A model generated the notes under the pieces. The model was not told the origin of the DNA and did no database searches. It saw only the letters and a list, made by a program, of their open reading frames with translations. A program made the translations under genes and the position numbers. Of a stretch of DNA of 64,000 nt, positions 797 through 26,040 are shown piece after piece. The stretch covers positions 124,001 to 188,000 of the forward strand of contig CAUYUJ010000148.1 in NCBI GenBank assembly GCA_963575745.1, written 5' to 3'. Position 1 is the stretch's first letter. The number at the start of each line of letters is the position of its first letter. The DNA is from Prorocentrum cordatum (taxonomy: Eukaryota).

Positions 797-1171
797 TCAG
801 CCGGCCACCTCAGCCTGCAGTTCGGCGGCCCAGGCAAAGCGGTCCCCGCCGAGGGCGGTTCGCAGCTGCCGCGCCTTGGCGCGGTGCAGCGCGACGTTGA
901 GCTCAGCGGCCCAGCGCTGCGCCAGGGCGCTGGCCACCGCCGCGGCGCGCTCCTCGTCCACCAGTTCCGCTTGGTCCCGCGCGAGCTGGCGGCGGTAGCG
1001 CAGCGCCGCCCTGCGGGGCCCTGCCGCGCCGCCCGCCTGTTTCAACAGCAAGCGGCGCCAACGGTCAGGGGCAGCGGGCCTCGGGGTACCGCCGCCTCTC
1101 GTCGGCCTCGGCCGCGGCGTTGACCGCGCCCTCGCGCTGGGCCGCGGCGCCCAGCCCGTCGGCGTCTCCGG
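797..1171 (-). pseudogene. 3' end of a decayed RLE-type (CRE/R2-like) non-LTR retrotransposon ORF, downstream half of the split LINE
   Basis: Minus strand reads PGDADGLGAAAQREGAVNAAAEADERRRYPEARCP*PLAPLAVETGGR, then after a frameshift QRWAAELNVALHRAKARQL. This resembles the 'P.avEt.GR ... ls.al.r.nA' tail of restriction-like endonuclease LINEs. Confidence 0.7.
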
Positions 1172-1216
1172 CTTACTCAGCCACAGTGGTATTTTGGAAT
1201 GCTTGGGGCGGGCGGG
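1172..1216 (+). repeat. Left terminal inverted repeat
   Basis: CTTACTCAGCCACAGTGGTATTTTGGAATGCTTGGGGCGGGCGGG, preceded by CCGG. Confidence 0.93.
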
Positions 1217-1617
1217 ACATAAACAGCGGGGTGTTTATTTGGGAACGTGAAAGCGACTTCTCCAGAGGCAGAGGGCTTAATCGAAACATCAATTTAAGCA
1301 ACTCCTCCTCATCATCGTCGTCCTCCTCCTCCTTCTCCTGTTGCTCCTCCTCCTTCTCGTCCTCCTCCTCCTCCTCCTCCTCCTCCTCCTCCTCCTCCTC
1401 CTCTTCCTCCTCCTCCTCCTCCTCCTCCCCCTTTCAGCTGCAATGTTTGCGCTGTAGGTTCTGCCCCACTCACGGTAACAGCGCAAGTTTCTTGGAGGCC
1501 GAGGGAGCAGCAGCAGACAGATTCCCAGGAAGAGTTTCGACGAACGCACGTAGCGCTCAGGGCCACTTAGGGGCTTGAGGCTTGGGCCCCAAGGGGGCCT
1601 CCCCCTCCTCATCCTCC

Positions 1618-1638
1618 TCCGTAGCAGATCTACTCAAG
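1618..1638 (+). other. Degenerate spliced-leader relic upstream of ORF 1696
   Basis: TCCGTAGC-agatcta-CTCAAG: both SL ends are intact and the middle has diverged. Confidence 0.55.
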
Positions 1639-1695
1639 TTGTCAAGCAGTTCCTCTGTTCGGCTTTGAGTGCGCGAGATCGTACGCCTTTCCGCC

Positions 1696-2472
1696 ATGCC
1701 AGTGGTGGACTCCCGCAGCGCGACGCCATCGGCTGAGCAACCGCCGCCCGTCGCCGTCTACCTCAAAAACTTCAACGTATGGTACACCATGGACTTGGAA
1801 GTGCAGGAGAACTCGACGCTCGATAACCCGCTTCGTTTCCCTGTGATCCAGGCCAAGGAGCAGCTGTGCTTGCGCTTCAGCTGCTTTACTACCCCCGAGA
1901 AGGTGAATTTCGCCCGGTGCTCCGGACAGCGCGGCGCTGACCCGATTGGTGGCGCGCCGCTCGACAAGGATGGCTACGTGCTCTACACTTCTTGGTTCAT
2001 GGCGTGGGAGGACAACGGCAGCACCCCCGACTCGTCGTCGCATGACCACCTCGGCTCTAGCGGAGGCTCTGTGAACTACCGTCGCGGCCACGCTGGCACC
2101 GGCACTGTCAGCTCCATCGACGACGACGACGCGTCCCAGAGCGACCTCGAAGCCTACGTCCGCAGCCCCACTCAGACTCAGGCTCAGCGCTATGTCCAGC
2201 CTCCAGGGGACCGCCGTGCGTTCATTCAGGTCATGGTCTACGTGGAGGCGTGCGACGAGTGGGCCACGTTCGTCTTGCCCAATGCAACCCCGCCGACCAT
2301 CAAGGAACTCAAGATTGTGGTGGTGGGCAACATTCCAGACCCCGACCTCACGACGGACCATCTCGTCATCTGTACCATCGTCGATGGCCGCAAGTCCGAC
2401 GAGGTGCACGATCACACCCTGGTCTTGGACAACAAGCCGTGGCACATGGTGAGCTTGGAGGACGTCCAGTAA
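1696..2472 (+). CDS. Element cargo ORF, 258 aa, unknown function; possibly two ubiquitin-like (beta-grasp) domains separated by a Ser/Asp linker
   Basis: Uninterrupted, compositionally complex ORF with GC-rich third positions and GCCATG start. An SL-like relic lies at 1618-1638. The two halves resemble each other (VAVYLKNFNVWYTMDL...VIQAKEQL / IQVMVYVEACDEWATFVL...TIKELK). The fold is inference. Confidence 0.65.
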   Translation: MPVVDSRSATPSAEQPPPVAVYLKNFNVWYTMDLEVQENSTLDNPLRFPVIQAKEQLCLRFSCFTTPEKVNFARCSGQRGADPIGGAPLDKDGYVLYTSWFMAWEDNGSTPDSSSHDHLGSSGGSVNYRRGHAGTGTVSSIDDDDASQSDLEAYVRSPTQTQAQRYVQPPGDRRAFIQVMVYVEACDEWATFVLPNATPPTIKELKIVVVGNIPDPDLTTDHLVICTIVDGRKSDEVHDHTLVLDNKPWHMVSLEDVQ

Positions 2473-2964
2473 CGTAATAAGTGCTAGCCAGCGCGGCGGG
2501 CGATGCTGCCCAGCCGGCGCATGCAGCGAAGGGCGGGCGCGGCATTTTGCGTCTGAGCCCTTGCTTGCGAGCAAATCATTTTCCTCCGCCCTCTTTTTTC
2601 TCCTTCCCCCTCCTATCCATTCCAGGTATCCCCCATCCTCCTCCTCCTCCTCCCTCTCCCCGTCCCCCTCCTCGTCCTCCTCCTTATCTTCCTCCTCCTC
2701 CTATTCCTTTTCACTCTCTCTTCTTGCGTATGTACGCTACCCCTCTCACCTCCCATCGCCCCCTCCTTGGCAATCCGTGCTCGCCCTCCTCCCGTTCCCT
2801 TCTCTTCGGAGTCCAGGGCCCTGGGGGACGTCTTGGATCCAGGGTCCTCGGGAGGGCCCTGGAATCTTCTGAGGTCCCCAGGGGATTTCTTCTCGGCGCC
2901 CTCGGGGGCACGCTGAAATGGGAGGGAGACGACGGCGAACAGGGGGAGGAGGACGGGTGGGTGG

Positions 2965-3135
2965 AGGAGGAGGAGGAAGAGGAGGAGGAGGAGGAGGAGG
3001 AGGAGGAGGAGGAGGAGGAGGAGGAGGAGGAGGAGGAGGGGAGGAGGAGGAGGAGGAGGAGGAGGAGGAGGAGGAGAGGAGGAGGAGGAGGAGGAGGAGG
3101 AGGAGGAGGAGGAGGAGGTAGAGAGGAGGAGTAGG
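2965..3135. repeat. (GAG/CTC)n microsatellite, representative of many such tracts (e.g. ~140-265, 1305-1430, 9000-9160, 17945-18290, 36400-36470, 43260-43400)
   Basis: Direct reading. These tracts explain most poly-E/R/G/S/P/L ORFs in the six-frame track. Confidence 0.95.
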
Positions 3136-3809
3136 AGAGGCGTAGGAGGGGGAGGGTGGGGGAGGAGGGGGGGCAGGAGGTAGAGGAGGAGGGGGAGGAG
3201 CAGCAGCAGCAGCAGCAGCAGCAGAAGTTTTCGCGCGCCCTCGGCCTCTGGAGGCCGTTTTTGAGGTCGCAGGGGGTCGGACCGCCGCCGCGACCGTCGC
3301 CGCCGTCGTCGTCGCCGCCGCCTGTCGCCGCCGTCCTCGTCGACGCCGCCGTCCCTGGCCCCCGGCGGCGGGGTGCGGCGGCGCCGCCTTGGCCACGAAG
3401 CGCGGCCGCCGCCACGGGGGGGCGGCGCGCGCGGGGGGGCCCTCCTCCTCCTCCTCCTCCTCCTCCTCCTCCTACTCCTCCTCCCTCCTCCGCCCCTCCT
3501 CCTCTCTCCTCCTCCTCCTCCTCCCCCCTCCTCCTCCCCTCCCCCCCCCCCTCCTCCCTCCTCCTTCATCCTCGTCCCCTTTCTGATCCTCTCCTTCTCA
3601 TCCTTCGCCCCCCCCCTCTTCAAGCCCTCTCGACGGCGCTGGAGCGATGAGGGGGGGGGGGGGGGGGGGGGCGGAGGAGGCGATGAAGATGCGCGTGTGT
3701 TTTTCCATGGTGAGCTCATGGCCCAAGAAGTCCTACAAATGTCTGCGTGTTAACCACGAGTGACAATCCCGATTCACAGGCAACACAACTGACAAGGTCA
3801 GGCCTAACT

Positions 3810-4232
3810 TTAGTAGGGCATCCAACCACGCGTCATTCTCCTAAAAGCCACTATGCCCCATCTTGTGCGGCTAGCCTCACCCTGGCATTCGCTGAACATT
3901 GCCCTCGGACAGGTAGTCTTGACGTACTTACAGCACCTGATGCAGACGAGGATGTTTTTCATCTCGTTTCTGTTGTTGTCGCGGACTGCGGCAGCCCGGA
4001 GCTCGTGCGTCGGGTGAGCATTGGACACGATCCCGCGACGATAGATGTCTTCGTCGTCGTACTTCAGGCAAGATTGCCACGACTGTGGCAAGACGAGGCC
4101 GTTGCCCAAGTTGTTGCCGCGAAATCCCTCGGCGTCCTTAGGCGACCCCGGGCGATTTGGGTCTGACACGAGACTGTGTGGCGAGCTCGGGCGGCCCGAA
4201 GGATTGAACGGCAAATGATACAGCATTGACAT
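3810..4232 (-). CDS. Small cargo ORF (140 aa) with HxxH...CxxC...C putative zinc-binding motif
   Basis: HPTHEL...LVCIRCCKY...FSECQG...GWMP. A weak SL-like relic lies at 4279-4300. Confidence 0.4.
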   Translation of the reverse strand: MSMLYHLPFNPSGRPSSPHSLVSDPNRPGSPKDAEGFRGNNLGNGLVLPQSWQSCLKYDDEDIYRRGIVSNAHPTHELRAAAVRDNNRNEMKNILVCIRCCKYVKTTCPRAMFSECQGEASRTRWGIVAFRRMTRGWMPY

Positions 4233-4803
4233 TGCTGTGCTGGCCCTGGTTGTGAGGTTGGAGAAGAGCGAAACACAAAGAAAGCTAAAACAGCTATGAT
4301 GGGACGCGATGCCGATGAGATGGCAACGACGATGCTGCGGTGAGGAGGGAGGTGACGCGGCGACCTCGGGCCGATCGGCTTCATTGATGGGGCCGCCGGG
4401 GGGCCCGACCCCCTGGCGGCCTCAAAACGGCCTCCCGAGGCCGAGTGCGCAAGCAAAAGCTCTGGAGGTTTCAACGAGGTCCTTTCCTCCTCCTCCTCCT
4501 CCTCCTTCTCCCCCCATCTGCTCCTCTTCTGCTCATCCTCCGCCTCCTCCTCTCCAGCCCGTCGTCCTCCAGCCCTCTGGCCAGCGGCTGCCCTCCTCGT
4601 AGGCGCCTTCAATCCACGCCCCCCCCCCCCCCCCCTCTCTTCATCTGTCTCAGACGCCCGAGGGGGGGAAGAGGGGCACTGGAAGGCCCCGCCCCCCAGC
4701 GGAGGAGGCGGAGGTGGAGGGGGCGGAGGGGGGGGGGAGATAGTAGGAGGAGGAGGAGGGAGAGAGGACGAAAAGGAGGAGGAGGAGGAGGGGGCCAGGA
4801 ATG

Positions 4804-7800
4804 ATTTTTTAGTTCGCCGCGCACCCCCCAACGTCTACACGCTGAACGAACTTGAGGAAATCCCACCAGTCCAGCACGTGCCTTGCGACTGCAGGCGTTA
4901 AGGCTGGCTTTACAACCTCAGCCTCACGCTTCGTCGCTAGCCCCGATACACGCGCCTTTTTTTTGCCTCAGCTTTCGCCCTCTCGAAAGCGTCAGGGGGC
5001 CCTAATAAGGTCCACTGGCTTTGGGATTCGCCTGCGATGTTGCGCACCAGATCTGATAGGCGAGGGTTCGCAGCTCTGAAACGGTCGGACACCCGCACTT
5101 GTCGCAGCATACTGACTGCTGAGATGCACGAAATCACAGGCCCTGAACGCACGCCAAGGACAACCTCAGGCGTGCAGACAATACCACCTCGCAACACAGC
5201 GGCGGCCAGAATGTGATTGCCTGGGTCGGCTGGGTCGCTCACAACGAAAATGTCGGGAATGGTGTGCACACCGAACACGTTAGAACTCTCGACGCCACCA
5301 CTGCGAAGCTTTCTTCTGACAGGGCTGATCTGCGAGGGAGTCATCTCAGCCTCAGCGAAATAACAAAGCCCCCCCTTCAGCTGCGATATCGGCGGCAGGC
5401 GGCCACCTTCGACCTTCTTGTCTAAAGCCGCTTCCCTGTTGACCCGCTTGACTGCGAGGCCCCTCAAGTGCGCGCCGTAGTCGGTGGCCTTTGCCCGGAG
5501 GGATGGATCGGCATCAGCTTCCTCGTCGGTCAAGTGGTTGCTCAGGTGCGCCTCGAACCTGAACTTGGTAGCCTTCTGCGCCTGGAACGCGGCTTCCTTC
5601 TGGTGGCCATCGGTCCAGCTGGGGTCACCAGCAGTAGCTCCAGCACTCTCAATCCACGATGTCGAAGAGCGAGGCATCGCCAAAGCGTCCACGACGACCT
5701 TTTCCACGGCCGCCTTCCGTTTGCGAAGCCACGCCGTCGGTGTATTCGTTGACCCAGAGTTGGATGACCTACATGCCTTCCACTTGTCTACTGCTCCATC
5801 CCTGCTAACGCCGTAACACGAATTCCACACTTCTTGGGCTCGCTGGGCAATGCACAGGACTGAAGGTGTATCCTTAGGCCGATCGACAACCAATTTGATC
5901 TCATCGCATTCTGTCGATTCTGTCCCGTGCAATCTCCTGTCTCCGAAAACCCACATGCACTTTATGAAATCTTGTTCAATTCTTGAGGCGCAAGCTTTGA
6001 ATGTACTGAAGCGGTACAACAGCTTCTTCAGCTCATCATTCGAGGTTCGACAATCGGCGCTCTTGTTCATGGCATCTGACTTCGAAACGGCAAACTTCCA
6101 GCCATCGAGATTGGAGCAGTCCTCAGAATTCACGCGGGACTGGGCTGTTCGCCAATGAGAACCGAGCTGGGCCTTAAGCGCGGCCCCATCAAGTTTCAAT
6201 GCGCGTGCCAACTTTTTGATGTGGTGATCCCGACTGGCAATCGAATTTACACTCTCCCTAGCCCGCTGCTTCTTGAAGGAATTGCCCAAGCTCAATACAC
6301 AGAAACTTTGCAGCAACTCGAACGCAGGGTACTCAGCTTTGACAACCTGAATACAAAGTTTAACCCGCCGCCCCAGATGGCGCAAATTGTTCGTCACTAC
6401 ATCCATTGGAACACCCCCCCCCCGATTGCCCACTGCGTTGAACTTCCCGTTGCGCATCGGCAGTGTAACTGGATTGTTTTCAAGGTGTCCAACATGAACG
6501 AAGTGTAGCTGGTAATCGTCGTGATCGTGCCCTCTTGGTACAATTCGATAACCCGAATGAGAAAGTAGTACACGTCCGAGTTGATCTCGGCGGCGTCGGC
6601 GGAGTCAAAGTCGCCAGCTCATCGAGCAAATTCCAAGCCGTCGTCGGCGGCGTCAGCCATCATGCTCAAGAGCACCGCCTTGGACGTCGCGATAGTTTCG
6701 ATGAATGCCACGGCGTGGTGGGCGTCTGAGGACGTCCTCATGATACGCGCGTCGCGCGCCGTCAGGCAGAGCGGGGCGAACCAGAGCACCCACCTCACGA
6801 CGCGATCAAACCAGCCGTTGCCACCAAACTGTTTCTAACACACAACAAAAACCTTAGAGCCCGGGAAGGAGGCGGAGGAGGAGGAGGCGAAGGCGAAGGA
6901 GGAGGAGGGGGAGGAGTACTAGGACCCCATGCCCGCCACGGGCGGCCCGCCCCCTCCTTCGCCCCCTCCTCCCCCTTCCGCCGCCCCCTCTCCTCGTCCT
7001 CGAGTCTTCTTCTCCTCATCCCCGTCCTCCTCCTCTCCTCCTCCTCCTCCTCCTGCTCCTCCTCCTTCTCCCAACTCAACGTTATTGTGTTTCCCCTCCC
7101 CCCATGGGAGTTGCGTGGCATGGCTGGTTCTCCCGCGACTGGCGTGGCCCCCCACGGGCGCCGCATAGCTCTCGAAACGGTGTTTCGCTGAATGGAGACT
7201 CATCAGTGAAGAGTTGTTCCGCTTGAGCCCCTGGTCAAACTGGTCGCGCCGGTGGGTGACCAGATTTCGCAACACCAGCGAATGGTCGATCTTTTGAACG
7301 AATCTGTCCTTGCGAGTAAGGAAGAACTGGATCATGGCATTTATCTGGTCGTCAGCTTTCCAGGGTCTGCTCAACATCCTGGGGCGGGGGCGACGACGAC
7401 GACGGCGGCGGCGGCGGCGACGACGACGACGTCGACAACGACGACAACGACGACGATGACGACGAAGACGACGAAGACGACGATGACGTCGACGACGGCA
7501 ACGACGATACGACGAATACCATGCTGGCGACAACGAAGGTGTGAGGCGCCCCGTCGCCGTTGCTGATACCGCTCCCCCATCTCTCCCTGGGGTTTAGCGC
7601 TTTTGGGGGGTATTTCGGGGGACCTTCATTCAGCGCTGTCATTCATCGCCGTCGTCGTCGTCGTCGTCATATCATGATTTCATTTTACCCTCGTTAGTCC
7701 TTCTTGCTGCATGAGCTTTGTCCCTGACCAAAGCCTCCACGTTCGGCGCGATCGGGACGTTCCCGTTCGGCGGGTCAATCATGTCCCTAACTGATGCCAC

Positions 7801-8775
7801 CTCGTCAGACGCAGAGTCCGCGCAGACCATCCTGATCTGCTTCTTTATGTTCTCCAAGATGAAGGGCTCTAGCTTGCTCTTGGGCTCCGAACCTGGTTCT
7901 CGACGTGGAGGGCCGTGACTATTCACCGTGGCAATTCGTTCGATGATGTCTGAGGTTGCTGCTGCAATGGCAGGTGCTCCAGACCCGAGGTGTTTACGCA
8001 TGCCAAGGTGACCATGAAGCGCGTTCAACTCGGGGTCGCAGGCGCAGAACCGAACGGACAGGCGAGCGTGACGCTCGTCCCGAAATATGGCGATGCAAGT
8101 GGCTCGAGACAAAAACTCTCGGTCGCGTCGCCTCAATGCCTCGGCAATACACCAAACCATCTTTTGAAACTTGTGTTGGTGGCCAACATGCTCGATTCCA
8201 GCCCTCAGAGCAGTTCCTTTGCAGATCGTGTCCCACACCTTCACCAACATGTCTGCTGGGGGCGCTCCAATAACGACATTGCCAGTGGGGCCCGTGATAC
8301 CGCCGTGCTCTTCCAAGTATTTTCTGGTAGCGGCCTGGCGTTGCTTAGTACGGTGATGTTTCCTGAGGTTCACCAACTGCAGAGCATCGCTGGTTGTCAC
8401 GGCACAGGCGCCGCACGGACCTGGCGCCTGCGCTGCTTTGCAGCACACGCACCCCAACCCCCATTCACCAGAGGAACTGACGTGCCCAATCATCCATGTA
8501 GCAGGGACGATGCCGAGCATATTACAACCCAAATCACTATGGATCGCCAGCTCTCTGGTCCATTGGCGCTCGTGGCTGATGTACTTGCATCTGGCGCAAC
8601 CAGGGTTTTTGCAATATCTGTGATGAATGATATCATCTGCCAGCCCATGCCGCTGGTTGCCCTTGTCAAGTCGTTCCACCATGTGGGCCAATATTCGCGC
8701 CCGCCTGGCCCCAGTGACGCACAACCGGCGAGACCGCTTAAGATTCTTAGGGATCACATGTCGGTGCAACTCCAT
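4804..8775 (-). pseudogene. Intron-containing hAT-like DDE transposase with N-terminal Zn-finger-like and C-terminal BRCT-like regions; disrupted
   Basis: Exon 1 (8775-7700) has CKNPGCARC, GCVCCK..LRKHH, FRDERH, CADSASDE and RDKAH. Intron 7699-7379 is GA..AG. Exon 2 (7378-~7150) has MLSRPW and KHRFES, equivalent to the hAT RW-x-S motif. Exon 3 starts at 6793 and has ASRIEQDF, equivalent to ERxFS. Lesions: TGA at 6621-6619, frameshifts in the G10 run (6414-6423) and A run (~4960), and a damaged exon-2 donor. The 3' end is approximate. Confidence 0.75.
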
Positions 8776-8808
8776 GCGTGGGGCAGAGCGACAAACAAGA
8801 ATTGAATT

Positions 8809-8830
8809 ACTGAGCCAAAGCTGCTGCGGA
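8809..8830 (-). other. Degenerate spliced-leader relic upstream of the transposase
   Basis: TCCGCAGCAGCTTTGGCTCAGT, 16/22, ending 34 nt before the ATG at 8775. Confidence 0.65.
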
Positions 8831-9223
8831 CATCACCATCATCATCACATTCATCGTCGCCATCATCATCGTCCATCCATCACCCTACGAAGACCCCCCC
8901 TCCTTGCGCGAAGCTCCAGTGAGCGAAAAAACAGGGGATTCCACCCTGCCCGCCCCCGCTCCTCCAGCCTCCTCCTCCTTCTCTTCCTCCTCATCGAACC
9001 TCCTCCTCCTCTTCCCTCCCTCCTCCTCCTCCTCCTCCTCCTCCTCCTCATCTCCTCCTCCCTCCCCTCCTCCTCCTCTCTCCTCCTCCTCCTCCTCCTC
9101 CTCCTCCTCCTCCTCCTCCTCCTCCTCCTCCTCCTCCTCCTCCTCCTCATCCTCCTCCTCCTTCTCCTGCGTCCCCAGGCGCGAACTGCGGCTCCAGTGG
9201 AGCGAGACCCAGCCCTATGCAGT

Positions 9224-9612
9224 GAGCTACCACACCTCTCAACACGACCGCGCGCGCTACCACGCCTCTCAACACGACCGGTCGTTCAGGAATTCTCGGG
9301 CGTCCCTCTGAACAGGACCGGACGTTCAGGAATTCAAGGTCGTCCTGGCCTCTGAACACGACCGGACGTTCAGGAATTCCTGAACGTCCGGTCGCGTTGA
9401 GAGGTATATCCTCCTCCTCTTCCTCCCTTTTCCTCCCTCCTCCTCCCTCCTCCCTCCTCCCTCCTCTCTGTCGCCCTCCCTCCTCAGCTCAAATTCCTGA
9501 ACGTCCGGTCGTGTTCAGAGCCCTGGAAGCCAGGAGCCAATGAATTCCTGAACGTCCGGTCGTGTTCAGACGCCTGGCGACCGTGAGTTCCTGAACGTCC
9601 GGTCGCGTTGAA
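9224..9612. repeat. Mirror-symmetric array of a ~30-bp unit (CTCTSAACACGACCGGACGTTCAGGAATTC): 4 forward and 4 reverse copies centred on GAATTC
   Basis: Forward copies at ~9236 (partial), 9266, 9306 and 9350. Reverse copies at 9374, ~9491, 9542 and 9585. A 56-bp near-perfect palindrome spans 9349-9404. Confidence 0.9.
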
Positions 9613-9719
9613 GGGCGGGATGCTTAAATGTGAGCTTTCTCCGGAGACGAGCGTTTAAGTTGCTAGACTTCTCAGTAACCTCGCGGCCCCTTCGAGGCCA
9701 TCCTCCAAGTCCCATAGGC

Positions 9720-9935
9720 GGGCCTGTTGAGCCAGAGTGGTAGCGCTACCACCCTGGCTCAACGCGACGGGAGCTCCCGTCGTGTTCACTACCACGCCTG
9801 GTGGACCCAGGCCACTCTCGAACCCTGACCTCAGTCGCGCTGGCCAGCGTGCGAGGCGCGTGGTAGTGAACACGACGGGAGCTCCCGTCGTGTTGAGCCG
9901 CGGTGGTAGCGCTACCACTCCGCCTCAACAGGCCC
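9720..9935. repeat. 78-bp inverted repeat with 60-bp spacer; arms built from nested palindromes
   Basis: Arms at 9720-9797 and 9858-9935 each contain the palindromes GTGGTAGCGCTACCAC and CGACGGGAGCTCCCGTCG. They share AACACGAC and GCTACCAC motifs with the 9224-9612 array. Confidence 0.9.
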
Positions 9936-10469
9936 ATTGGCTGATCTTGAGATGGCCAACAGCCAACGGCCTGACGTCAGCCATGTCTTTATCTTGAGGC
10001 TCTCTTCAGAAGGCGATCCTTATCTGCGGCGGCTGTCCAGGGTCTGAGGAAGGAGGAAGGAGAGGAGGGAGGAAGGAGAGGAGGAAGGAGGAAGGAGAGG
10101 AGGAAGGAATGAATATGTCTGCTTGTTGCTGCGACGGTGGGCCGAGCTTGATTGGCTTCAGCTCTGGCCCTCAGCTCTGTTGTCGAACAGACACCTGGCA
10201 ACTAACTGCTGCACTGCCCTACCACTATGGGCCAGCCCGCATGCGTCCACGCGTGAGTAGGCACACTCGAGTCAAGCAACGCGTTGGCAGTCTGCTTCTT
10301 CAAACGCTGCGGATCCCCCGCAACATCTCATGACGCATTCGACGACAAGCGTCGCACTACAACCAACTCCTAGGTGCATAGAGTGTGTTCTGCAATGCCA
10401 GAAAGCTACCAGATGCCTGAAAAAAACGAGCTCAAGAGCGTGGTCGACCTGACGATGAGGCAATTCCGT

Positions 10470-13400
10470 TCATTCGACGTTGCTCAGAAGGCTGGCCAAG
10501 GCACCTGCTGCGGACCCGCTGGCGCCAGCATCGACACCGTCAGCGCCGCCGTCGGCACCCTCACTGCCGCTTTCGTCGCCCTCCTCGGCGGCGAACGCTT
10601 CTGCCAGAGGTCCCGCGCCGGACTCCGCAGCGGTCTTGGCGTGGGCTCTCTTCTTCGCCTCAGCTTTTGACTTCCGCTTCGCCGCCGCCGCAGCCTTCTT
10701 AGCCTCAACCTCGATCTTGCGCGCCTCCTCGGAGTTGGGGCCATCGCCCTCGTTCGTCTTCCCAGCCAAGAACCTGGCGTAGTTTGCGTGGTAGTGCTTG
10801 TGGCCCTCCGTCTTCATCATCACCATGAACTCCTTCACGAGGTGGGCCATTAACATCTGCTTGTGCTCTTCGTTCTGGAAGCAGATGCCCAGGTACCCGA
10901 TGCCCTTCCCGACGCAGTGGGGCGAGAAAACGCCACCGCCTGGCGTCAGATCCATGACTACTTTGGCGTAGTAGCTCGTCGTCAGCTCCTGGTAAAACTC
11001 CTTCGGCAGCTGGTGCCAGTTCACAGGCTCCGCACACACGTTCTTCTGAATGCCGCCGCTGCCCCTGCCCCCTCCGGCGATCTGGATATTGAGCTCTGGC
11101 TTGGGGATCTGCGCGTGGTTGCGGGTTGCGACGCCGTCCTCGTCGCCGCTCCCCTCGCCCTCGTCTGACGCATCTTCAGTGTCGATAGTTTTTCCACCCG
11201 CTGGCTTGCGGTTCGGACCGAGGAACTTCTTTTTGTCCTCGAACGGCAACTTCCAGCTGTCGTCCCACGACTCGTAGGTGATGGGGCCCATGGTGTCCCC
11301 GTTGTTGGGGCCAGGGTAGACGGCGCGCTTCTTCTCTGGGGTGACTGTGTCGATGGCGCGGTAGAAGTGAACGGTCTGGAGCTGCTTCAGAGACGAAATG
11401 CCCCGAACCAGAGCTCGACGGCCCTTCAAACTATCCTCGTCGAGGAACATGTGGGTCATGTTCCTCGCGACTCCCTCTGCCTGGCACGCGCTCTTCCAGC
11501 GACCCCTCCCTGTGACCATGATCTTGTTGATGACGCCCCCGGCGCCTCGCGTCGAGGATCGACCGCGCCCGCCTTCAAAAACTCACGACATCAAAAACTC
11601 GCCAGATTGAAACCCTGAAACCCGAAAGACAAAAACACACAGAGTCCCTGAGAGGCCCCGGGGGGATGGCAGGTGTTCGGTCTATCCGCGTACCTTTCTT
11701 GCCTCCGTCCAAGTACATGCACGCGCCCCCCTGGCTGAGGCGCCCGCTGTCATGGCCACCCCTGCGCCTGGCACTGATCACAGAGTTGAACAGCCGACCC
11801 AACTGATCCTTCCGGAAGGGCGCAGCACGAAGATGAGGCGCAGTCACCGGCTCGCCACTCAGCGTAACGCCCGCGTGGACAAGGATATGGCCTGTCATGT
11901 CGCCCTCCTCCATGCCGAGCGTAGTTTGCGCGATAGATGCCTGCAATGCTGCTTCGCTCTTCCCAGAGTCAGAGATCAGCTTCACGTAATCGGAGACCTT
12001 CTTCTGTGCGAACCTCAAGTACCACGCATCCACTGCGCCCTTGTTCCCTGGATCTTCAAGCGAGGCGGTGAAAGTCTGGGTCAAGGCTGGATCCCCCTCC
12101 TGACCTGCTGACAGCCGCGTGCGCTTCCTCGCTGGCCCCCCCTCGGCTTCCACCTTGTCGATCTCCTCGTCCTTCTTGGCCTTCTCAGCGTCATCAGCTG
12201 TCTGGCACTCCCAGACCTTGTCGATCTCCTCCTTATTGCCAGCGTGCTCCAACGTCTCCTCGGTGGACTTGCCCTTCCGGCAGCAGTAGCGCAGCTGCTG
12301 GTCGTACCCCCTCCCGAACGCGAGCCCCTCCGTCAATTCGAACATCGCCTTCTCGGAAGTCACTGCGCTAACCTTCCAATTGCTGTCGACCTCGATGTCA
12401 CCGGCCAGCGGCTCCACTTTCGTCCTGTACAAACGGTGTGAACTGAAAACTTCCTGGACAAACGCTTGCAGTTTGGGAGACCTGTACACCGCCAAAAACT
12501 CCCCATGCGTCAAGAACTCCCGGAGCTCTTTCTTGAACGCCAGCACATCAATCAGGCCCTTGTTGCCACCGATACCATCTTTCAAGTTCTTGAGCGTGAT
12601 CTCTCCGGTGTGCATGGCGCCAGACTCGCAGAGATCTATGATGCCGTTCAAAACCCAGTTGATCATCTTCTTGTCCTTGTTGCACCTCGAGACAATCAGG
12701 CTCAGCTTGTATACGCTCTCGAAGGGCCCCGATGAACCCCACTTAAGGGTTGCCATCCGGATGGCTGCGAGGTTGGGTTCGTACTTGATGGTGAGATCGA
12801 CGACAGACGACGCCGACTCGATGAAGGTCTTCGTGATCGGCTCCGCTTTCGAGTTCAACGCGATTTCCTTCTTGTACCACTCGAATAACGTATCGTTAGA
12901 GATCTTCTTTTCCTTGCCGCCGGTACCCCCAAGCCTTGCAAGTTTGGACCTGGTCTGCATAACCTTCGGGGCGCCACTGAAAACTGCCGCCACCGCCTGA
13001 CGTGACACACCCCTCGGGCCCGCTGACGAGGCCCCTGGAGCCCACAAGGGCTCACCCCCAAAACCCAGAGACGCACCGTTGCTGTCGAGGTGGCGGTGGC
13101 GTTTCTTTCAGCGATGCCCAGAGCCTCGCAGATACGCTGGAGCGTGTCGCGCCCGACAGCGGTTGCCTCTGACATGACCTGCTCCCTGAGGTTGATGCTG
13201 CGGGACCACGCTGTATCATCCTTGGCTTTGTGGACCTCAAACTGGAATGTCGTATTCAAGATATCCTTGCGGTACCCCTCGAGCGTCTGCTCCGATGCGC
13301 CATGCTCGATCGCGTCTTTGATGGCCAGCAGGCGTGCAAAGAAAGGTTCCTCTGGCGACAGGCGCTCCCAGTTGCCAGCGTTGGTCACGGGGTTGATTGC

Positions 13401-13797
13401 GGGGTCATCCGCGGCAGCCACGACGACGCCAACGTAGAGACCAGGCTCCCGGAAGCACGCGTGTTTCAGCTCCTGGATGTACGTCTCGTTGTAGGGAACG
13501 CCACCGTGGAAGGTGAAAAACAGGTTCCGGTTCCACTCGCTGGATGCGCACGTGTGCTTCTGAGTTCCGTTGGTCAGATCGTACTGGTACCTCTCCATGT
13601 TGAAAGCTGGCTGCGCTGGCCCCTTCCAGAAGACGGTGTCGAGCGCCTTCATCGCCCGCCGCGATCGGCTTGAAAACCTCGTGCTGCTTGACAATGTTCA
13701 TCGCAGACGTCACGTGAGCGATGAACTCCGCGTTGATGTTGTCAACGGGGTCAGCACTCAGCCTCGCCAGCTGTCCGACAGCCACACTTTCCGCCAT
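10470..13797 (-). pseudogene. Three-exon gene (~1000 aa) with putative ParB-like N-terminus, acidic linker and beta-class N6A/N4C methyltransferase-like C-terminal fold; one frameshift near 13660
   Basis: Exon 1 is 13797-13125 (GC donor). Exon 2 runs from 12996 or 12963 to 11694 (GT donor). Exon 3 runs from 11545 or 11572 to 10470. All junctions are phase-compatible with AG|G acceptors. The C-terminal WHQLPKEFYQEL...VMDLTPGGGVF...GIGYLGICF resembles the beta-class HP..KP...vlDpF.GsG...gr.yiGiE pattern. No DPPY motif was seen. Confidence 0.65.
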
Positions 13798-13874
13798 GAC
13801 ACAATGACTGCGTGGTGTACAAGTACTGAGACTCAGAGTGTCAAAGCGAAAGCTCAGAAACAGCCGAGCTCAAG

Positions 13875-13896
13875 CTGCGGCCAAAAGGGTCACGGA
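13875..13896 (-). other. Degenerate spliced-leader relic upstream of the ParB/MTase-like gene
   Basis: TCCGTGACCCTTTTGGCCGCAG, 16/22. Confidence 0.6.
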
Positions 13897-14407
13897 GGAG
13901 GTGGAGCAGTGGAGGGGCGGAGATGGGTGAAGAGAGTTGAGGAAGAAGGGAAACGGGAGTGATGGCCCTGTTGAGGGTCCCACGAGGACCTCGTTTGTGA
14001 AGAAGTCAGCTTCTCCCCTCCTCCTCCTTCCCTTCCTCCTTCTCCCCCTCCTCCTCCCGCGCATCCTCCCCCCGCACCTCCTCCTCCTCCTCCTCATCAT
14101 CATCACCACCATCATCCTCCTCCCCCCTGCTGCTGCCGGCGGATTTCGGGGATTGGTTCCGGGGCGAGAAGATCACTCGAGGGACGGGGTCGAGAGCTTA
14201 AGAACGCCGTAAAGACAAGGCCCCGCGGCTCGAAATCCACGTGGACAGATGAGGTCGAGAGCCATTGATGACGATGATGATGATGATGTGATGATGCTGA
14301 TGATGATGTTGTTGCGCTTTTTATGTTCACTCTATGGCAGTCACTTGCCCCTGCGCGTCCTGCGTAGCTGTACCTGCGCCGGCGCTGACTGACCACGCGA
14401 GTTTAAT

Positions 14408-15648
14408 CTACACCAGCGCGCCCCGGGACGCGACGATGCCGATGTGGCCGAGGACGCTTCGCACCAGCGGGCAAAGCGCGTTCACAGACATGGCGTTGCC
14501 CATCATGCGCCCCGCCCTCTGCTCGCTGACTTTCGCCTTCTCGAGCAGGTCGGCCTTGAAGTACCCGGCGCTGTAGCCTTGCAGCTGGGCAAGCTCGCCC
14601 ATGGTGACTTGTCTCCCGCGCGGCAGAATCCAGTGCCCCATGATAGCGCCGCGGCTCGCAGTGATCGTCGGGAAGGCACCCACTTTGTAGTTCAGCCTTT
14701 TGGTTGTGCAGCCGATGTCGATAACGATGTCCTTAGCCAATGCCACTCGTAGATCGCACTCGTCAGTGCACCGCTTGGCGAGATCTCTGACACATCCAAC
14801 CACGTTGGCGCGCGCGCGCTCTCCTTGGGAGGCAACCCGTTCGCGATGGCGTCGACCCCCGCCATGGTGGGCATTCCGACGATGTCACGAACCAGCCGGT
14901 GCACGCCGGTATAGGCGGGCCACTTGAACTCCTTCTTGGCTTGCTTCAAGTCTGATCGGAAACCCGCAACGTAGATGCGCTCCCTCTCTTGAGGGATTCC
15001 GAAGTCCGACGTCTTCAGCGCCTTGTAAGAGACCGAGTAGCCGCACTCCTTCAGGCACTTCAAGATGCACTCCCACACCTCTGCGAACTTGTCGGACAGG
15101 ATGCCGTTGACCATCTCCAAGATGAACGCCTTAGGCTTCACCTCCTCGATCGTCTGCACAGTCTGTAACCAGAGTTTGCCGCGATCGTCATGGGGCCCAT
15201 CTCCTTTGCCTCCCTTGGACCAAGGCTGGCACGGCGGCCCCCAGGCGTACAACTCGATGTCCTTCGGGAGCTGTTTGTTGTCGCGCTCCGTGATGTCTTC
15301 ATGGATCCCCGAATCAGGGTCCCCATATAGTTCTTTGAGGAGCCTCCTGCAGCTAGGGTTCTTCTCCGAACTGAAATGCCAGCGGTATGAAAACGATTCA
15401 GCAGTGAGCGCCGCCAAGACCGAGTCGCATCCAGCAAAATCACTCGCATAGGTCACATCCCACGAAGTGTTCTTGGATCGTCGAACCTTCTTCATCGGCT
15501 CCTCCTCCTGGACGCTGGCGGCGGCGGCGGGCCTCTTCTTGACCAGACGCGCGACAGCTGCAGGTCGCATTACAGAAGCCTTGGGACGTGGCACTGGCGG
15601 GGCCGCTGCGTCTTCAGAGTCAAGTTCGTCCTGCCACAGAAACGCCAT
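14408..15648 (-). pseudogene. DNA (cytosine-5) methyltransferase, prokaryote-like single domain; frameshifted in a (GC)6 run
   Basis: Ordered C5-MTase motifs: I SDFAGCD, II SSEK, III EDIT, IV GPPCQPWS, V DDRGKL, VI FILEMV (canonical ENV), VIII GIPQERERIY, IX RQVTMGELAQLQG, X MGNAMSV. Removing one GC unit at 14808-14819 fuses the two ORFs. Confidence 0.92.
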
Positions 15649-15707
15649 CACAATTGTGGGTAGTATGTATGTGCGAGACACAACAATGCAAACGTGAGTC
15701 GCGCTAG

Positions 15708-15729
15708 ACGAGCCATAACAGGCTTCGGA
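15708..15729 (-). other. Degenerate spliced-leader relic upstream of the C5-DNMT
   Basis: TCCGAAGCCTGTTATGGCTCGT, about 16 matches with one gap. Confidence 0.55.
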
Positions 15730-15863
15730 CGGGTGACATGCGATGGATGATTGACGATGATTGACGTGCCCCAAAGGATGTTTTGTTTAACCTTATGTCT
15801 CTGGACAGTTGTCGGGGTGGCCCCTCCCCCTCCTCCTCCTCTTCCTCCTTGGTCCTCCTCCGC

Positions 15864-15885
15864 CCCATAGCCGCTTTGGCTCAAA
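15864..15885 (+). other. Degenerate spliced-leader relic
   Basis: CCCATAGCCGCTTTGGCTCAAA, 17/22. Confidence 0.7.
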
Positions 15886-15938
15886 AAGGTGTCGCCCGCC
15901 GTCGGCGGCTACTGTAATGGTGGTTATTTCCAGCGGCC

Positions 15939-16609
15939 ATGCCGGACCTCCGCCCAGCATTCTCCCTCGGTCGAAAGCCATGCCGCGACCGCAACAGTGG
16001 GCGAGAGGAAAGCCACAAGGACAGCGAGCGCAAGGACAGGGAGCGCGGCAAGGACAGCGAGCGCGGCAAGGACAGCGAACGCAAGGACAGCCACCACCGC
16101 AAGAAGGACAGGGAGCGCAAGGACAGCGCGCGTAAGGACAGCGAGCGCCAGGACAGCGGCCGCCGCAGCCGCGGGCGCAAGGACAGCCGCCGCAGCCGCA
16201 GCGGGCGCAAGGACAGCCGCCTGGCAGCCGCGACGACGGGAAGAGCAGCAGCAGGATGCCGACGACGCCCAAGCGGCATCATCCGCCTGGGGAGCGGAGC
16301 TGGCCAGCGGGGGCGGCGGCGCCGCGTGACGACAGCAGTAGCCCCGGACGTCGTCGTGACCATCGTGGTGAGCAGAGCATTGTCAGCAAGATGAAGATCA
16401 CAGCGAGGCTACACCGCAATGTCAGTTCGAGCCCATTCCGCGGCCCGCTTGGGGAGTGGTCGGGTGGCCAAGATGGCCGCCCTTGCCCTTCGTGGATGGG
16501 TGGCGCCGCGCGGAAACGTCGAATGGAGCTACCTTCGCCGGACCTCGTCAAGTACTTCAGCGACGAGCGTGTGCCACCGCCGCCGCCATCCCCGTCGCCG
16601 AGTCTCTAG
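15939..16609 (+). pseudogene. Arg/Ser/Lys/Asp-rich low-complexity ORF (RKDSE repeats), probably frameshifted near 16225
   Basis: GCCATG start 54 nt after an SL-like relic at 15864-15885. Contains repeated GCAAGGACAG units. Function unknown, and it may be non-coding. Confidence 0.35.
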
Positions 16610-16843
16610 GTCTCTAGCCGTCGAGTTGTTGCCGCCCTGCGCTTTGTACAGCGGCGCGTCAAGAAGATGTTGTCTACGGGCGTTAGATTGAAAAGCTCTT
16701 GCCTGGCATGCTGGCCGTCGTCTCCCGAGGGTCGAAACGCAGGAGGGGGCGGGAGGCCGATGAGAAGGAATGGGCGGGAGGAGGAGGGGGTGTGTGGAGG
16801 AGGGGGCTCGACAACGGGTTCAAATCAAATCCCATGTGTCCGA

Positions 16844-16865
16844 TCTGTAGCCGTTTTGGCTCAAG
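16844..16865 (+). other. Dinoflagellate spliced-leader relic
   Basis: TCTGTAGCCGTTTTGGCTCAAG vs DCCGTAGCCATTTTGGCTCAAG, 20/22. Confidence 0.9.
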
Positions 16866-16874
16866 CCTCTACTG

Positions 16875-17904
16875 ATGCTCACTTGTTTCACAGTGAAAGC
16901 AGGGACCATCACTCTTCTCAGCGAGTCGGCTGCTCGGAAAGCAGCGCGGCGGGCAGCTCGTGCAGCGACGGCGTCTGACGCCGCGATACACCGGTCAAGG
17001 ACGCCGCCGAGGACACGGATCTGTCCACCGCCGAGCCGCCGCCGGAGCCGTCCACCGAGCCGTCTACCGAGCCGTCCACCGAGACGTTCACCAACGCGTC
17101 CACCGAGCCGTCCACCGAGACATTCACCGAGACGTCCACCGAGCCGCAGGACACCGAGGACACAGAGCCGTTCACTGAGCCGTCCCAAGACACCAAGCCG
17201 TTCAAGAACACCGAGCCGTTCACTGAGACGCCCCAAGACAACGATCCGTTCGAGACGTCCCTTCATGGAGGCCGACCCAGTCCAAGACGATCAACTTGCG
17301 AGTGGTGTTATCGAGGTCTTCATTCCAGATACGGAGCCAGGGGGTGAGCATTGGATTGGCGTGAATGGTGGTCAACCCCCAATACGAAGCGACAAACTGC
17401 TCGTGGCCGTCAAAGAGATCGAGTTCCCAGATCTAGACAGGACTAAACTCAATATATCATGGTACAAAAAGGACAAGTACGGCAACGTGGTGATGGGAGA
17501 AGATCTGTTTCCGTTGCGAGTGATGATCCCGAGCGGCTCTAAGGTCATGGTATGGCAGCGAGGACAACCTTACGCGAACCTCGTGTATGATAAAAGGGTT
17601 TCGCGAGTTGCCCTTGTGGCGGCCATCCCCGCCAACCGCCAGCGACGGCTTAGCATTGCCAAGAGGTTCTCTGAGGTCCGCATTCTCCGCCAGCATCATC
17701 CAGAAGCCCCATGTTGGGAAGAAAGCAAAGAAGTGTGCTCATCCAGACTTCTCGTTTCATGTGAATAGCGACAATTCCGTCGGCAAAGGGATGTACTGTT
17801 GCGAGAAGTGCGAGGGCCTGCATAAAGGCGAGTCTTGGGCGCAGAGCAAGAGGGGCAAGCGCCACTACAAGAACTGCGAGCAGATCGTGTTTCGCTCTGC
17901 CTAG
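16875..17904 (+). pseudogene. Cargo gene: RSP-rich N-terminus, globular middle domain and C-terminal Cys/His domain in a second frame
   Basis: ORF 16875-17768 begins 10 nt after a 20/22 SL match. The overlapping frame encodes KCAHPDFSFHVNSD...YCCEKCEG...RHYKNCE to the stop at 17904, implying a frameshift or small intron near 17650-17720. Confidence 0.55.
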
Positions 17905-18427
17905 CGCTGCAGCTGGAAAAATACAGCATCCCCCCTCCTTCCATCAACTCCTCCTCCTCCTCCTCCTCCTCCTCCTCCTCCTCCTCCTCTCCTCCTCCTC
18001 CTCCTCCTCCTCCTCCTCCTCCTCTTCCTCCTCCTCCTCCTCCTCCTCCTCCTCCTCCTCCTCCTCCCCCTCCTCCTCCTGGCGTCCAACCCAAAGAGGA
18101 GCACCGAGACTCCCTAGGGGGTGATAAGGATGAGGCGGCCCATGCGGCGGGGGGCGAGGAGGAGGAGGAGGAGGAGGAGGAGGAGGAGGAGGAGGAGGAA
18201 GAGGAGGAGGAGGAGGAGGAGGCAGAGGAGGAGGAGGAGGAGCCTGAGGAGGAGGAGGAGGAGGAGGAGGAGGAGGAGGAGGAGGCAGGCGCTGAAACGG
18301 GTGAAGCATTCCTTACGTAGTCAGCCTCCATGCACGAGTTTCCCTGGGAAGGTCACGCGCCACCGCCTGTCCAGGGGCGGGGGGCTTATTTCCTTAGCGG
18401 GACGTGGTTTGCTCAGGTGAACTACCC

Positions 18428-18472
18428 CCCTCCCGCCCCAAGCATTCCTAAATACCACTGTGGCTGAGTAAG
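18428..18472 (-). repeat. Right terminal inverted repeat
   Basis: Reverse complement reads CTTACTCAGCCACAGTGGTATTTAGGAATGCTTGGGGCGGGAGGG (2 mismatches to the left TIR). Followed by CCGG. Confidence 0.93.
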
Positions 18473-19410
18473 CCGGGCACAGCATGCCGGACTGTCGCGT
18501 CGAAGGCGCGCGGACGGCCGGCACGCCGCACCCCGAGGTCGAGGATCGCCTCCCCGCGCCGGGCCTCCAGCGGCTGGCCGCAGGCGGCGCAGGGGCCCGG
18601 CTGCTGGTTCGCCGCGCCCGGCGCGTCGCACGGGCCGCAGCGCCGCGCCCGCCGGTCCCGCGCGGGAGCGGGAACTTGGCGGGCCGCGTGGAAGCCGCAC
18701 TCGGCGTGAATGCGCCCCCGCACATCCTCGACATCCCTGCTGCGGGCTTAGGCGCCCCCACCGCAGAGACATCGAAAGGCGTGGCGCGCTTTGTTGCAGA
18801 GCGGCTCGTCGCAGACGCGGCCCACGCGCGGGCCGGTGCGTGCCCGGTTGCTGCAGCAAGCTCCGGGCGGCGCGAGGTGCTGGCCAAGGAACTCGCGGGC
18901 GGTGCTGCAATAGTCCGCGTTGCCGATGCGCTGTCCCGCGGCGCCCGGCGGGGCCAGCTGCCAACCTCCAGCGCGCGGCCCCCCGCAGGAAGCCAGCCTC
19001 GCCCGGTCCTCGCTGGTGCTGGTGCTCCGCAAGGCCATTTAAAAGGTTTTTCTGGCCCAGTCGCCGCGTGAGCTCCTTCTGCACCTTGGTGCGAGGTTGT
19101 TGGGCGAGGCCAAGCGGGCGGGGGGTCCGCTCCCTCCCCTGGCCCACACCAGGGCTGCGGCAGCGCCACCAGGAGGCGCGCGGCCCTGCAGGAGGCCGCC
19201 AAGGGCTGCTCGGCCTCCTCCAAGTCGTCCAGGGCGGCCAAGCCCGTGCGGGCGCGCACCTCTGAGAGGCTTTGCGCCCAGGAGCCGACCCACGCCGCAG
19301 GCGTGAGCTGCTCCTGGCTGCGGAAGCCCCGGCCGCCCAAGCGCAGCGGGAGTCTGCACTGCGCGCGTTGGTGCTCAGTGAGCGGGTCCAGGCGAGTCAG
19401 GACGATTCCA
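18473..19410 (-). pseudogene. Upstream half of the same 5'-truncated, decayed RLE-type LINE (post-RT region, Cys/His knuckle, start of endonuclease)
   Basis: Motifs LPLRLGGRGFRS...AAWVGSWAQ, CDEPLCNKARHAFRCLCGG and EAILDL...AFDATVRHAVP occur across several frames. The reading ends exactly at the right CCGG. Confidence 0.7.
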
Positions 19411-24867: not shown

Positions 24868-25061
24868 TCTACTACTACTCCAGATTCTCCGCCGTCTTAA
24901 GACTACTTCTACTACTACTGCGAATCGTCGTCGTCGCCGTCGTAGTGACAGTGGTAGTAGTAGTCGACGCCGTCGTAGTAGTGGTCGTCGAAGAACGCAT
25001 AGTCGTAGCAAAACCAGTCGTAGTCGTTTTCGTAATAGTAGTAGTAGTAGTAGTAGTAGTA

Positions 25062-25096
<35 letters not shown>

Positions 25097-25097
25097 C

Positions 25098-25136
<39 letters not shown>

Positions 25137-25463
25137 ATATAGTAATAGCAGTAGCAATAATAGTAGTAGTAGCAGTAGTCGTAATAGTAATAGTAGTGGT
25201 AGTAGTCGTAGTGGTAGTGGTCGTACTACTAACAATAGTTTAAGAAATAGTTTGGGTCGTAGTCTGGTCAATCGTAGTAGCCGTAGTAGTAGTAGTTATA
25301 ATAATAGTCGTATAGGTGTGGTGCTCGTGGACACAGCAGTACTGCGCATACTACTACTACTACTACTACTACTATTACAACTACTACTTCTACTAATACT
25401 ACTAGTGCTACTACTACTGGCGGCAACAATAGTAAAAACAAGTAGTAGTAGTCATAGTAGTCA

Positions 25464-25504
<41 letters not shown>

Positions 25505-26040
25505 AAAGTAGTAGTAGTAGTAGCCATACGACCTCTACTACTACTACTACTACTACTACGACTACGACTACTACTACTAGTACTACTGCTACTACTACTG
25601 CTACAACTACTACTACTAGTAATAAGAAGTCGTAGCGAAATTTGAAGTCGTGGAGCTAACAATTGTGCCAATATAGTACGCGGTAGTACGAGTACTTGTA
25701 GTAGTAGTAGAAGTACTAGTCGTAATAGTAGTAGTCGTCGTAGTAGTAATACCAGTAGAGGTAGTAATCGTAGTATCAGTAGTAGAAGCAGTAGCAATAA
25801 CAAAACTAAGAATAGAAGTCGTGCTCGTCGCACAAGTAGTAATGGAAATGGTAGTGCTAGTAATAGTAGTAGTAGTAGTACTAATAGTAGTAGTAGTGCT
25901 GGTCGTAGAAATAGTAGCAGTAGCTGAACACATTGCAAACAAACTTGTAATGCTAATAGTCGTAGCCGTCATACCAGTAGTAGTATGGCTGGTAGTACTC
26001 GTAAGCAGTAGCCGAAGTGGCGTCGATAGTAGCAGAACTG

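Follow-up and report, generated by a model that had tools for sequence, protein, structure and literature searches.

The 64,000-nt window analyzed here (contig CAUYUJ010000148.1 of Prorocentrum cordatum) contains at positions 1168–18476 what appears, on balance, to be one decayed copy from a family of large elements of the hAT superfamily, carrying a cytosine-5 DNA methyltransferase (C5-DNMT, hereafter DNMT) gene and a further large gene in addition to its transposase. Nearly identical terminal inverted repeats (TIRs) delimit the interval. Under this interpretation, the whole interval would move, or would have moved, as one unit, and the DNMT and the large gene would represent cargo of the family and not accidents of the locus. 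The initial annotation had described a giant cargo-carrying cut-and-paste element with about seven genes. Its anatomy is recognized for the most part: the TIRs enclose a hAT transposase, a C5-DNMT and a third gene on one strand, but a target-site duplication is missing and the enzymes are disabled. The number of genes was too high, as three are supported and the other open reading frames (ORFs) are of low complexity or without a match.

An intact transposase of approximately 1,070 amino acids (aa) would be expected to bind the TIRs of 45–49 nt and to move the enclosed DNA by cut-and-paste. Its predicted layout would comprise a CCHH finger at the N-terminus, an RNase-H-like DDE core interrupted by a helical insertion, and a tandem BRCT at the C-terminus. 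The passengers, that is, a DNMT of the Dcm/M.HhaI type and a protein of approximately 1,000–1,100 aa, would be encoded upstream of the transposase and on the same strand. In a live copy, the element itself or the host genome could be a substrate of the DNMT, which might, for instance, alter methylation-based control. Altered control of this kind has been proposed for the DNMT-bearing retrotransposons of Symbiodinium.

Element Ends

The first 45 nt of the left TIR agree with the right TIR in 44 positions (1168–1212 vs. 18432–18476) and, when the comparison is extended to 49 nt, in 47 positions; beyond this length the likeness ends. In the search of the whole 64-kb window with up to three mismatches, the 45-mer was located at two sites only, which are the two ends of the element. 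None of the 100 dinucleotide-preserving shuffles contained a match to the 45-mer, and the chance expectation is 0. The 45-bp repeats lying 17.3 kb apart, as initially noticed, are therefore confirmed, with an interval of 17,309 bp between their outer edges. A 27-nt core of the TIR, searched with up to four errors, was absent from the window except at both ends, and no nested internal boundary was found in this way.

A motif of 9 nt inside the TIR, GGAATGCTT, has a third copy at positions 18304–18312, 136 nt inward of the right end and oriented like the copy of the right TIR, and may represent a sub-terminal repeat bound by the transposase. The (CTC)n/(GAG)n blocks, which are found symmetrically inside both ends, were discarded as evidence for the TIRs, since simple repeats of this kind are widespread in the window. 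In-silico joining of the flanks, with 0–8 bp trimmed, left several frames open every time, as expected at 65% GC, and was uninformative.

The Transposase Gene

The word-indexed database contains two proteins closely related to the ORF at 7675–8832, namely P0001 (75% identity) and P0002 (45%). All three sequences reach the motif “...RDKAHxARR” and then diverge. A protein of 717 aa (P0003), apparently located on the 5,151-nt contig of P0002, carries the protein onward and matches the window in order at approximately 7378–7150, in a block from approximately 6795 and in the ORF 4940–6604. Since P0003 continues the protein across the exons of the window in their order, the transposase gene is spliced and encodes approximately 1,070 residues. 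The first intron corresponds to positions 7379–7699 of the minus strand (approximately 321 nt), where the family spacing “RR-xxx-RPW” requires a GA start and an AG/G end. This apparent GA donor and AG/G acceptor we take to be a noncanonical splice pattern of dinoflagellates. Together with the Prorocentrum cordatum origin of protein P0153 (see below) and the GC content of approximately 60%, it points to a dinoflagellate near Prorocentrum as the probable host.

The family was searched using HMMER, with the alignment of exon 1 against 1.84 billion representative proteins. The relatives amounted to 1,673 at E ≤ 1e-3, 1,004 at E ≤ 1e-10 and 196 at E ≤ 1e-30. Long members of the family have approximately 1,000 aa and are collinear with every transposase piece of the window, and the C-terminal ORF was matched by 20 of the 152 family proteins compared. 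Many family matches stop at profile position ~367, which is the first exon boundary of the window. This shared stop may indicate a widely conserved intron position, or it may be that gene callers often end there.

The consensus of the N-terminal finger in the family is GC..C ... H..S..H. The Pfam family zf-C17orf113, the sole one there, exceeded its cut-off in one of the 20 long relatives (P0077, 32 vs. 29.5 bits), and it was matched weakly in P0001 and P0002. No match of the transposase family to zf-BED was found in Pfam.

Judging from its sequence, the copy of the window is decayed, with both the transposase and the DNMT disabled. An in-frame TGA interrupts a conserved block of the transposase at a position where six relatives show R, D, S, K, C or Y. 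A frameshift, which may stem from the assembly, adjoins an A4 run. In the finger, Arg replaces the second His, a residue kept by all 21 of the long relatives and by no less than 90% of the 90 aligned sequences. Both the TGA and the change from His to Arg are substitutions. With the TGA, the frameshift and the lost zinc ligand in its transposase, this copy cannot move itself, and its DNMT is frame-broken.

Fold and Catalytic Residues of the Transposase

The fold was modeled with AF2 on P0005, the closest long relative (973 aa, without the first ~140 positions), using an alignment of 90 rows that included the window’s own transposase pieces. The model reached a mean pLDDT of 89.0 and a pTM of 0.79. 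In the Foldseek comparison with the Protein Data Bank (PDB), E ≤ 0.001 was reached by 12 matches, of which the 11 listed were all Hermes chains, with a best value of 5.9e-7. In the VIA-align superposition, residues 65–611 of P0005 were aligned to residues 139–609 of Hermes with Z 18.9 and a root mean square deviation of 3.3 Å over 398 residues. Respective values for other transposases were Z 8.3 for ISCth4 and Z 7.3 for the P-element. The C-terminal part of P0005 (772–960) matched tandem BRCT structures with Z up to 8.7 over approximately 160 residues.

As in Hermes, the RNase-H-like DDE core of the P0005 model is split by an all-helical insertion domain. The triad consists of D103 at the end of beta1, D194 just after beta4, and E571 in the helix past the insertion domain. 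These near-invariant residues, which occupy the canonical DDE positions, are the D of “RDER,” the D of “DSAxDE” and the E of “SRxEQDF.” The window retains all three, with the D codons at 8077–8079 and 7816–7818 and the E codon at 5975–5977. In the feature search of the ESM Atlas, the ten best named clusters were all hAT RNase-H-like (0.83–0.88), which serves as a lead only. The hAT-like DDE transposase of the initial annotation is thus upheld at the level of the fold, through the similarity of a relative to Hermes and the conserved triad, in a copy that is broken.

The Methyltransferase Gene

The DNMT gene was identified by PF00145 (5.5e-43, 148.1 bits with a cut-off of 22), by TIGR00675 of NCBIfam (2.2e-36, 126.2 bits with a cut-off of 100.65) and by the phage DNA methyltransferase group phrog_116 of PHROGs (1.1e-39). 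Its best solved relatives are M.HhaI (7.5e-20) and M.HaeIII, well above DNMT1 (6.4e-8) and DNMT2. This proximity to M.HhaI and M.HaeIII shows that the enzyme is of the Dcm type and not a eukaryotic Dnmt1 or Dnmt3. There were 1,233 phage records matching the DNMT, the best of which is 31.6% identical.

In the alignment to M.HhaI, the stretches GPPCQPWS, ILEMVNG and GIPQERERIY are recognized, and the catalytic PCQ, the QxRxR and the C-terminal GN motifs are present. The motif of the S-adenosylmethionine (SAM) site is FAGCD, and EMV occupies the position of the ENV motif; FxGxG and ENV are the canonical forms. Between the QxRxR and the C-terminal motifs, the frame changes within a (GC)6 run at 14808–14819, owing to a frameshift or a slip of the assembly and not to an intron. 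The overlapping ORF that carries the C-terminal motifs had no PDB match at E ≤ 1 and, in NCBIfam, was matched by TIGR00675 only (E 0.0096). In summary of the comparison with M.HhaI/Dcm enzymes, the present DNMT shares with them PF00145, TIGR00675 and the PCQ, QxRxR and GN motifs, whereas it differs by an N-terminal extension of approximately 65 aa, by EMV and FAGCD, by its broken frame and by an identity to phage records of at most 31.6%. Consequently, the gene initially described as a C5-DNMT with complete motifs is indeed a C5-DNMT gene according to its PF00145 match, but its motifs are complete only to some extent, given FAGCD, EMV and the break in the (GC)6 run.

The Large Gene

The third gene is formed by the ORFs 11578–13107 and 10473–11582, with a short intron between them. 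The same arrangement is found in P0153, a partial protein of 635 aa from Prorocentrum cordatum, which is 62% identical to the first of these ORFs and continues into the second. The frame is open over approximately 880 residues aligned to P0153. Further upstream, the ORFs 12858–13697 and 13408–13869 appear to be coding and are possibly part of this gene, the frame changing near 13640. No match to the large gene was found in Pfam (E ≤ 10), NCBIfam, PHROGs, PDB sequences or the Atlas, and the AF2 model of P0153 (three-row alignment) had a pLDDT of 33.8. The word-based search provided one relative at E ≤ 0.001 among 8,000 candidates scored.

A ParB/amino-methyltransferase-like gene had been proposed for this element, and it found no support in any of these five collections. 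In detail, no ParB or N6_N4_Mtase family of Pfam was detected in the 128 stop-to-stop ORFs of at least 75 aa between positions 1100 and 18600 (119 of them scanned at E ≤ 1e-4 and the remaining 9 scanned separately). P0153 likewise had no such Pfam match at E ≤ 10, and the NCBIfam and PHROGs scans of the element were empty in this respect. The “methyltransferase module” is therefore, as far as these scans show, reduced to one C5-DNMT, and its second component is without support. Near the C-terminus of the large gene, the stretch “DLTPGGG...GYLGICFQNEE” has a loose resemblance, in sequence, to a SAM-binding motif, and it may be what had been taken for the amino-methyltransferase.

Search for Relatives in Contig Collections

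In the viral contig collection, neither P0153 nor the DNMT provided any locus, and the transposase family profile found nothing in the prokaryote genome and viral contig collections. In metagenome contigs, the same profile produced 85 pattern stretches, which resulted in four distant loci (L001–L004) with 23–29% identity, and a second transposase alignment produced 595 pattern stretches, none of which was confirmed. Among sequencing runs, one DNA run contains 0.27 of the sampled words of 4900–14890 and two runs of the same study contain next to none, an uninformative observation as it stands, and no RNA run was listed. No match to the DNMT or the large gene was found near the four loci. Locus L001, on an 11-kb contig, is the only one with usable flanks. 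The search for TIRs on it found none, only palindromic repeats of the TAGCTAGCTA type. These repeats form dense clusters at positions 2081–3019 and 6826–7111 of L001, upstream of and within the transposase region.

Alternative Explanations for the Interval

Several results weigh against one mobile unit of a hAT family with its own cargo. A target-site duplication of 2–10 bp adjoining both ends was not found; the left flank ends with ...CGGCGTCT and the right flank starts with GCACAGCA..., without a direct repeat. An insertion of a hAT element normally produces a duplication of 8 bp (5–7 bp in some groups), and, since the TIRs diverge by only ~4%, a duplication of 5–8 bp should still show. The TIRs themselves are atypical: hAT ends usually have 10–25 nt and start with YAG, whereas the present ones are longer (45–49 nt) and their first bases are CCGG. 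The hAT families of Pfam, including the C-terminal dimerisation domain PF05699 and the hAT RNase-H-like families, had no match at E ≤ 10 in the ORFs of the window, P0001–P0003 and P0005, and no match at E ≤ 0.01 in 20 long relatives. Similarly, the PDB sequence search with exon 1, the C-terminal ORF and the family profile returned chance-level rows, and Hermes was not found. The modeled fold belongs to P0005, which is 32–50% identical to the window pieces, and not to the broken protein of the window itself. According to this model, the transposase is hAT by fold, yet atypical by the sequence models and by the target-site duplication of this copy. Moreover, no portion of the element recurred in the self-comparison of the 64-kb window, and the TIR had 0 matches in the viral and genome contig collections. 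The transposase of L001 is 26–33% identical and is accompanied by neither a DNMT nor a large gene. Finally, the G+C content at third codon positions (GC3) is 0.74–0.80 in the passenger genes and 0.62–0.63 in the two large transposase exons.

The last of these results would also fit a different history, in which the hAT-like element is real, whereas only this copy has the DNMT and the large gene between its ends, through a one-off capture or through insertion of other DNA into, or its recombination with, a transposase-only element of a few kb, so that no DNMT-carrying family would exist. This we hold to be rather unlikely, but it agrees with the one copy seen in the window and in the viral and genome contigs, with the bare transposase of L001 and with the higher GC3 of the passengers. 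The spacer of 1.6 kb, with its own repeats and hairpin, parts the passengers from the transposase gene. Furthermore, a single relative among the 8,000 candidates is unlike what a high-copy element gene would give; on the contrary, the word-based search was weak for the transposase too (two relatives vs. 1,673 by HMMER), and the single match of the large gene says little. This history is opposed by the absence of a TIR-like sequence at a nested boundary inside the interval, in the search for the 27-nt core, and by the same strand and comparable decay of the three genes.

The absence of a target-site duplication would also fit an interval that is not one insertion, in which the TIRs derive from two element copies or from a rearranged or misassembled region, the genes are a mixture of element remnants and host genes, and nothing moves as a unit of 17.3 kb. 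Rearrangement is plausible in a window which is rich in repeats and poor in genes (RVT_1 is the sole Pfam family above its cut-off in the ORFs of at least 170 aa outside the interval, and a (GTA)n block extends over 2.9 kb), and the two frame breaks in short repeats could reflect the quality of the assembly. Even so, this explanation appears improbable: two elements would provide up to four ends, whereas exactly two inverted TIR copies are present with a transposase between them, and the loss of a duplication by recombination between copies or by deletion of a flank fits a true element too. Lastly, a virus-like or Polinton-like element that has integrated and includes a transposase by chance is very improbable, although the 17 kb and the TIRs of the interval resemble those of Polintons and the DNMT, with its many matching phage records, belongs to a bacterial or phage type. 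At the sequence level, Pfam showed neither polymerase nor capsid, packaging ATPase or integrase families in the 128 ORFs of the element, PHROGs matched the DNMT alone, and the scans of viral contigs with the TIR and with each of the three genes were empty.

Comparison with Known Elements

The putative large hAT-superfamily element with cargo shares with Hermes and other hAT elements the DDE fold with its helical insertion (Z 18.9), the placement of D, D and E, and the presence of TIRs. It differs from them by the added tandem BRCT, the absence of hAT Pfam matches and the long TIRs starting with CCGG, as well as by its 17.3 kb, at least two further genes and the lack of a target-site duplication at this copy. 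In the literature searched, no hAT transposase with a BRCT is described. A DNA transposon of dinoflagellates that carries a DNMT, whether hAT or not, is likewise not described in this literature, to which Repbase, Dfam and paper supplements, where the family could be listed, did not belong. In the passages found of a dinoflagellate genomics review and of the P. cordatum genome paper, hAT elements are not mentioned.

The view that hAT elements are single-gene elements, on which the initial annotation had relied, is too strong. In rust fungi, hAT7 and six other lineages of DNA transposons carry TET/JBP genes, according to the available passages of Kojima 2025 (PMC12730594). From the same passages, hAT7-TET/JBP elements resemble the present one in having the gene for DNA modification upstream of the transposase gene and in the same orientation. 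However, the enzyme of hAT7 is a dioxygenase which removes 5-methylcytosine, whereas the one found here is a methyltransferase which writes it, and the hosts are fungal and dinoflagellate-like, respectively. The hAT7 families also have many copies and target-site duplications of 7 bp (PMC12730594, in part), whereas here a single copy without a duplication is found.

The usual host genes Dnmt1 and Dnmt3 are absent from dinoflagellates, and the DNMT copies of Symbiodinium are mostly located in retrotransposons, as stated in the sections consulted of PMC5890265. The same sections report that the retrotransposons SymbioLINE-Dnmt and SymbioDIRS-Dnmt3 of Symbiodinium carry a DNMT (de Mendoza 2018), and cite DNMT-bearing DNA transposons only for marine viruses. 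In common with SymbioLINE and SymbioDIRS, the present interval would be a dinoflagellate mobile element bearing its own C5-DNMT. As far as these sections go, the two retrotransposons have a reverse transcriptase, with the DNMT in ORF1 or Pol, whereas a DDE transposase is found here, and the present DNMT is nearest to the bacterial M.HhaI and not to Dnmt3. No RVT family of Pfam was detected in the ORFs of the element, the only one of the window being located at 55525–56238.

If a cut-and-paste element with its own DNMT is confirmed, DNA transposons too would have recruited cytosine methylation. The short list of DNA transposons with enzymes for DNA modification, for which the available part of PMC12730594 provides the known case of TET/JBP in fungal hAT7 and others, would be lengthened. 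The transposase clade is hAT by the modeled fold and is missed by the current hAT models of Pfam, and its fusion to a tandem BRCT may point to a connection with DNA-damage signalling or with the binding of phosphoproteins. Gene predictors and libraries of transposable elements that are based on searches of the Pfam or TransposonPSI type may count genes of this clade as host genes. It is conceivable, and is proposed here tentatively, that the 1,673 representative clusters without a catalytic Pfam model constitute a large uncatalogued hAT clade with tandem BRCT, some dinoflagellate members of which are autonomous elements of 15–20 kb with a Dcm-type DNMT and a large accessory protein. Such members would be the DNA-transposon counterpart of the DNMT retrotransposons, and part of the dinoflagellate methylome would then be written by mobile elements of both classes and not exclusively by host genes.

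Remaining Features of the Interval and the Window

Table 1. Positions of the features recognized in the interval 1168–18476.
Feature	Position	Strand	Remarks
Left TIR	1168–1216	+	49 nt; one mismatch to the right end in the first 45 nt
Right TIR	18428–18476	−	Inverted counterpart of 1168–1216
hAT-superfamily transposase gene, spliced	4940–8775	−	Collinear with full-length relatives
Transposase exon 1	8775 to ~7700	−	Within ORF 7675–8832
Transposase exon 2	~7378 to 7150	−	Short exon, placed by P0003
Transposase last exon(s)	~6795 to 4940	−	Block near 6795 and long ORF 4940–6604
Tandem-BRCT tail	3′ end of transposase gene	−	Fold match of relative P0005
In-frame TGA	6619–6621	−	Inside conserved transposase block
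Transposase frameshift	6470–6486	−	Conserved “TLK” in one frame, “NPVTLP” in the next
CGC (Arg) for second finger His	8338–8340	−	N-terminal CxxC...H..S..H finger
C5-DNMT gene, Dcm/M.HhaI type	14411–15648	−	PF00145, TIGR00675
DNMT main ORF	14695–15786 (Met at 15648)	−	PF00145
DNMT C-terminal ORF, overlapping, other frame	14411–14884	−	“ELAQLQGY...” and “GNAMSVNAL” motifs
Large gene, ~1,000–1,100 aa	~10473–13869	−	59–60% identity to Prorocentrum cordatum protein P0153
Spacer, large gene to transposase gene	9256–9935		Palindromic motif copies and hairpin
3.7-kb tail, left TIR to transposase stop	1217–4936		(CTC)n/(GAG)n-type repeats, low-complexity ORFs
Open frame, 305 aa	16851–17765	+	No match (Pfam, NCBIfam, PHROGs); not supported as a gene

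All three genes are located on the minus strand within the TIRs and show the order GC3 > GC1 > GC2 in their codon positions. The ratio of observed to expected CpG is 0.89 in the element and 0.86–1.06 outside, with no sign of a methylation-driven depletion. Apart from the genes, the tail 1217–4936 and the region 15800–16850 are of low complexity and no gene is supported there, with all Pfam families below their cut-offs.

Between the large gene and the transposase gene, the spacer contains, at 9256–9620, seven copies of an internally palindromic motif of 36–42 nt, three in one orientation and four in the other, followed at 9720–9935 by a hairpin with arms of 95 nt and 86% complementarity. They may represent a small foldback element that inserted here, or else an array with a regulatory function or for binding of the transposase.

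Outside the element, none of the 79 ORFs of at least 170 aa had a Pfam family above its cut-off besides RVT_1. The latter was found on the plus strand at 55525–56238 (1.9e-16) and is a remnant of a retroelement. The (GTA)n-type block extends from 25032 to 27895 (approximately 2.9 kb), and its largest array, at 26599–27895, has approximately 427 units. It is composed of 38–40% GC, with a strong skew of G over C, compared with approximately 60% GC in the window.

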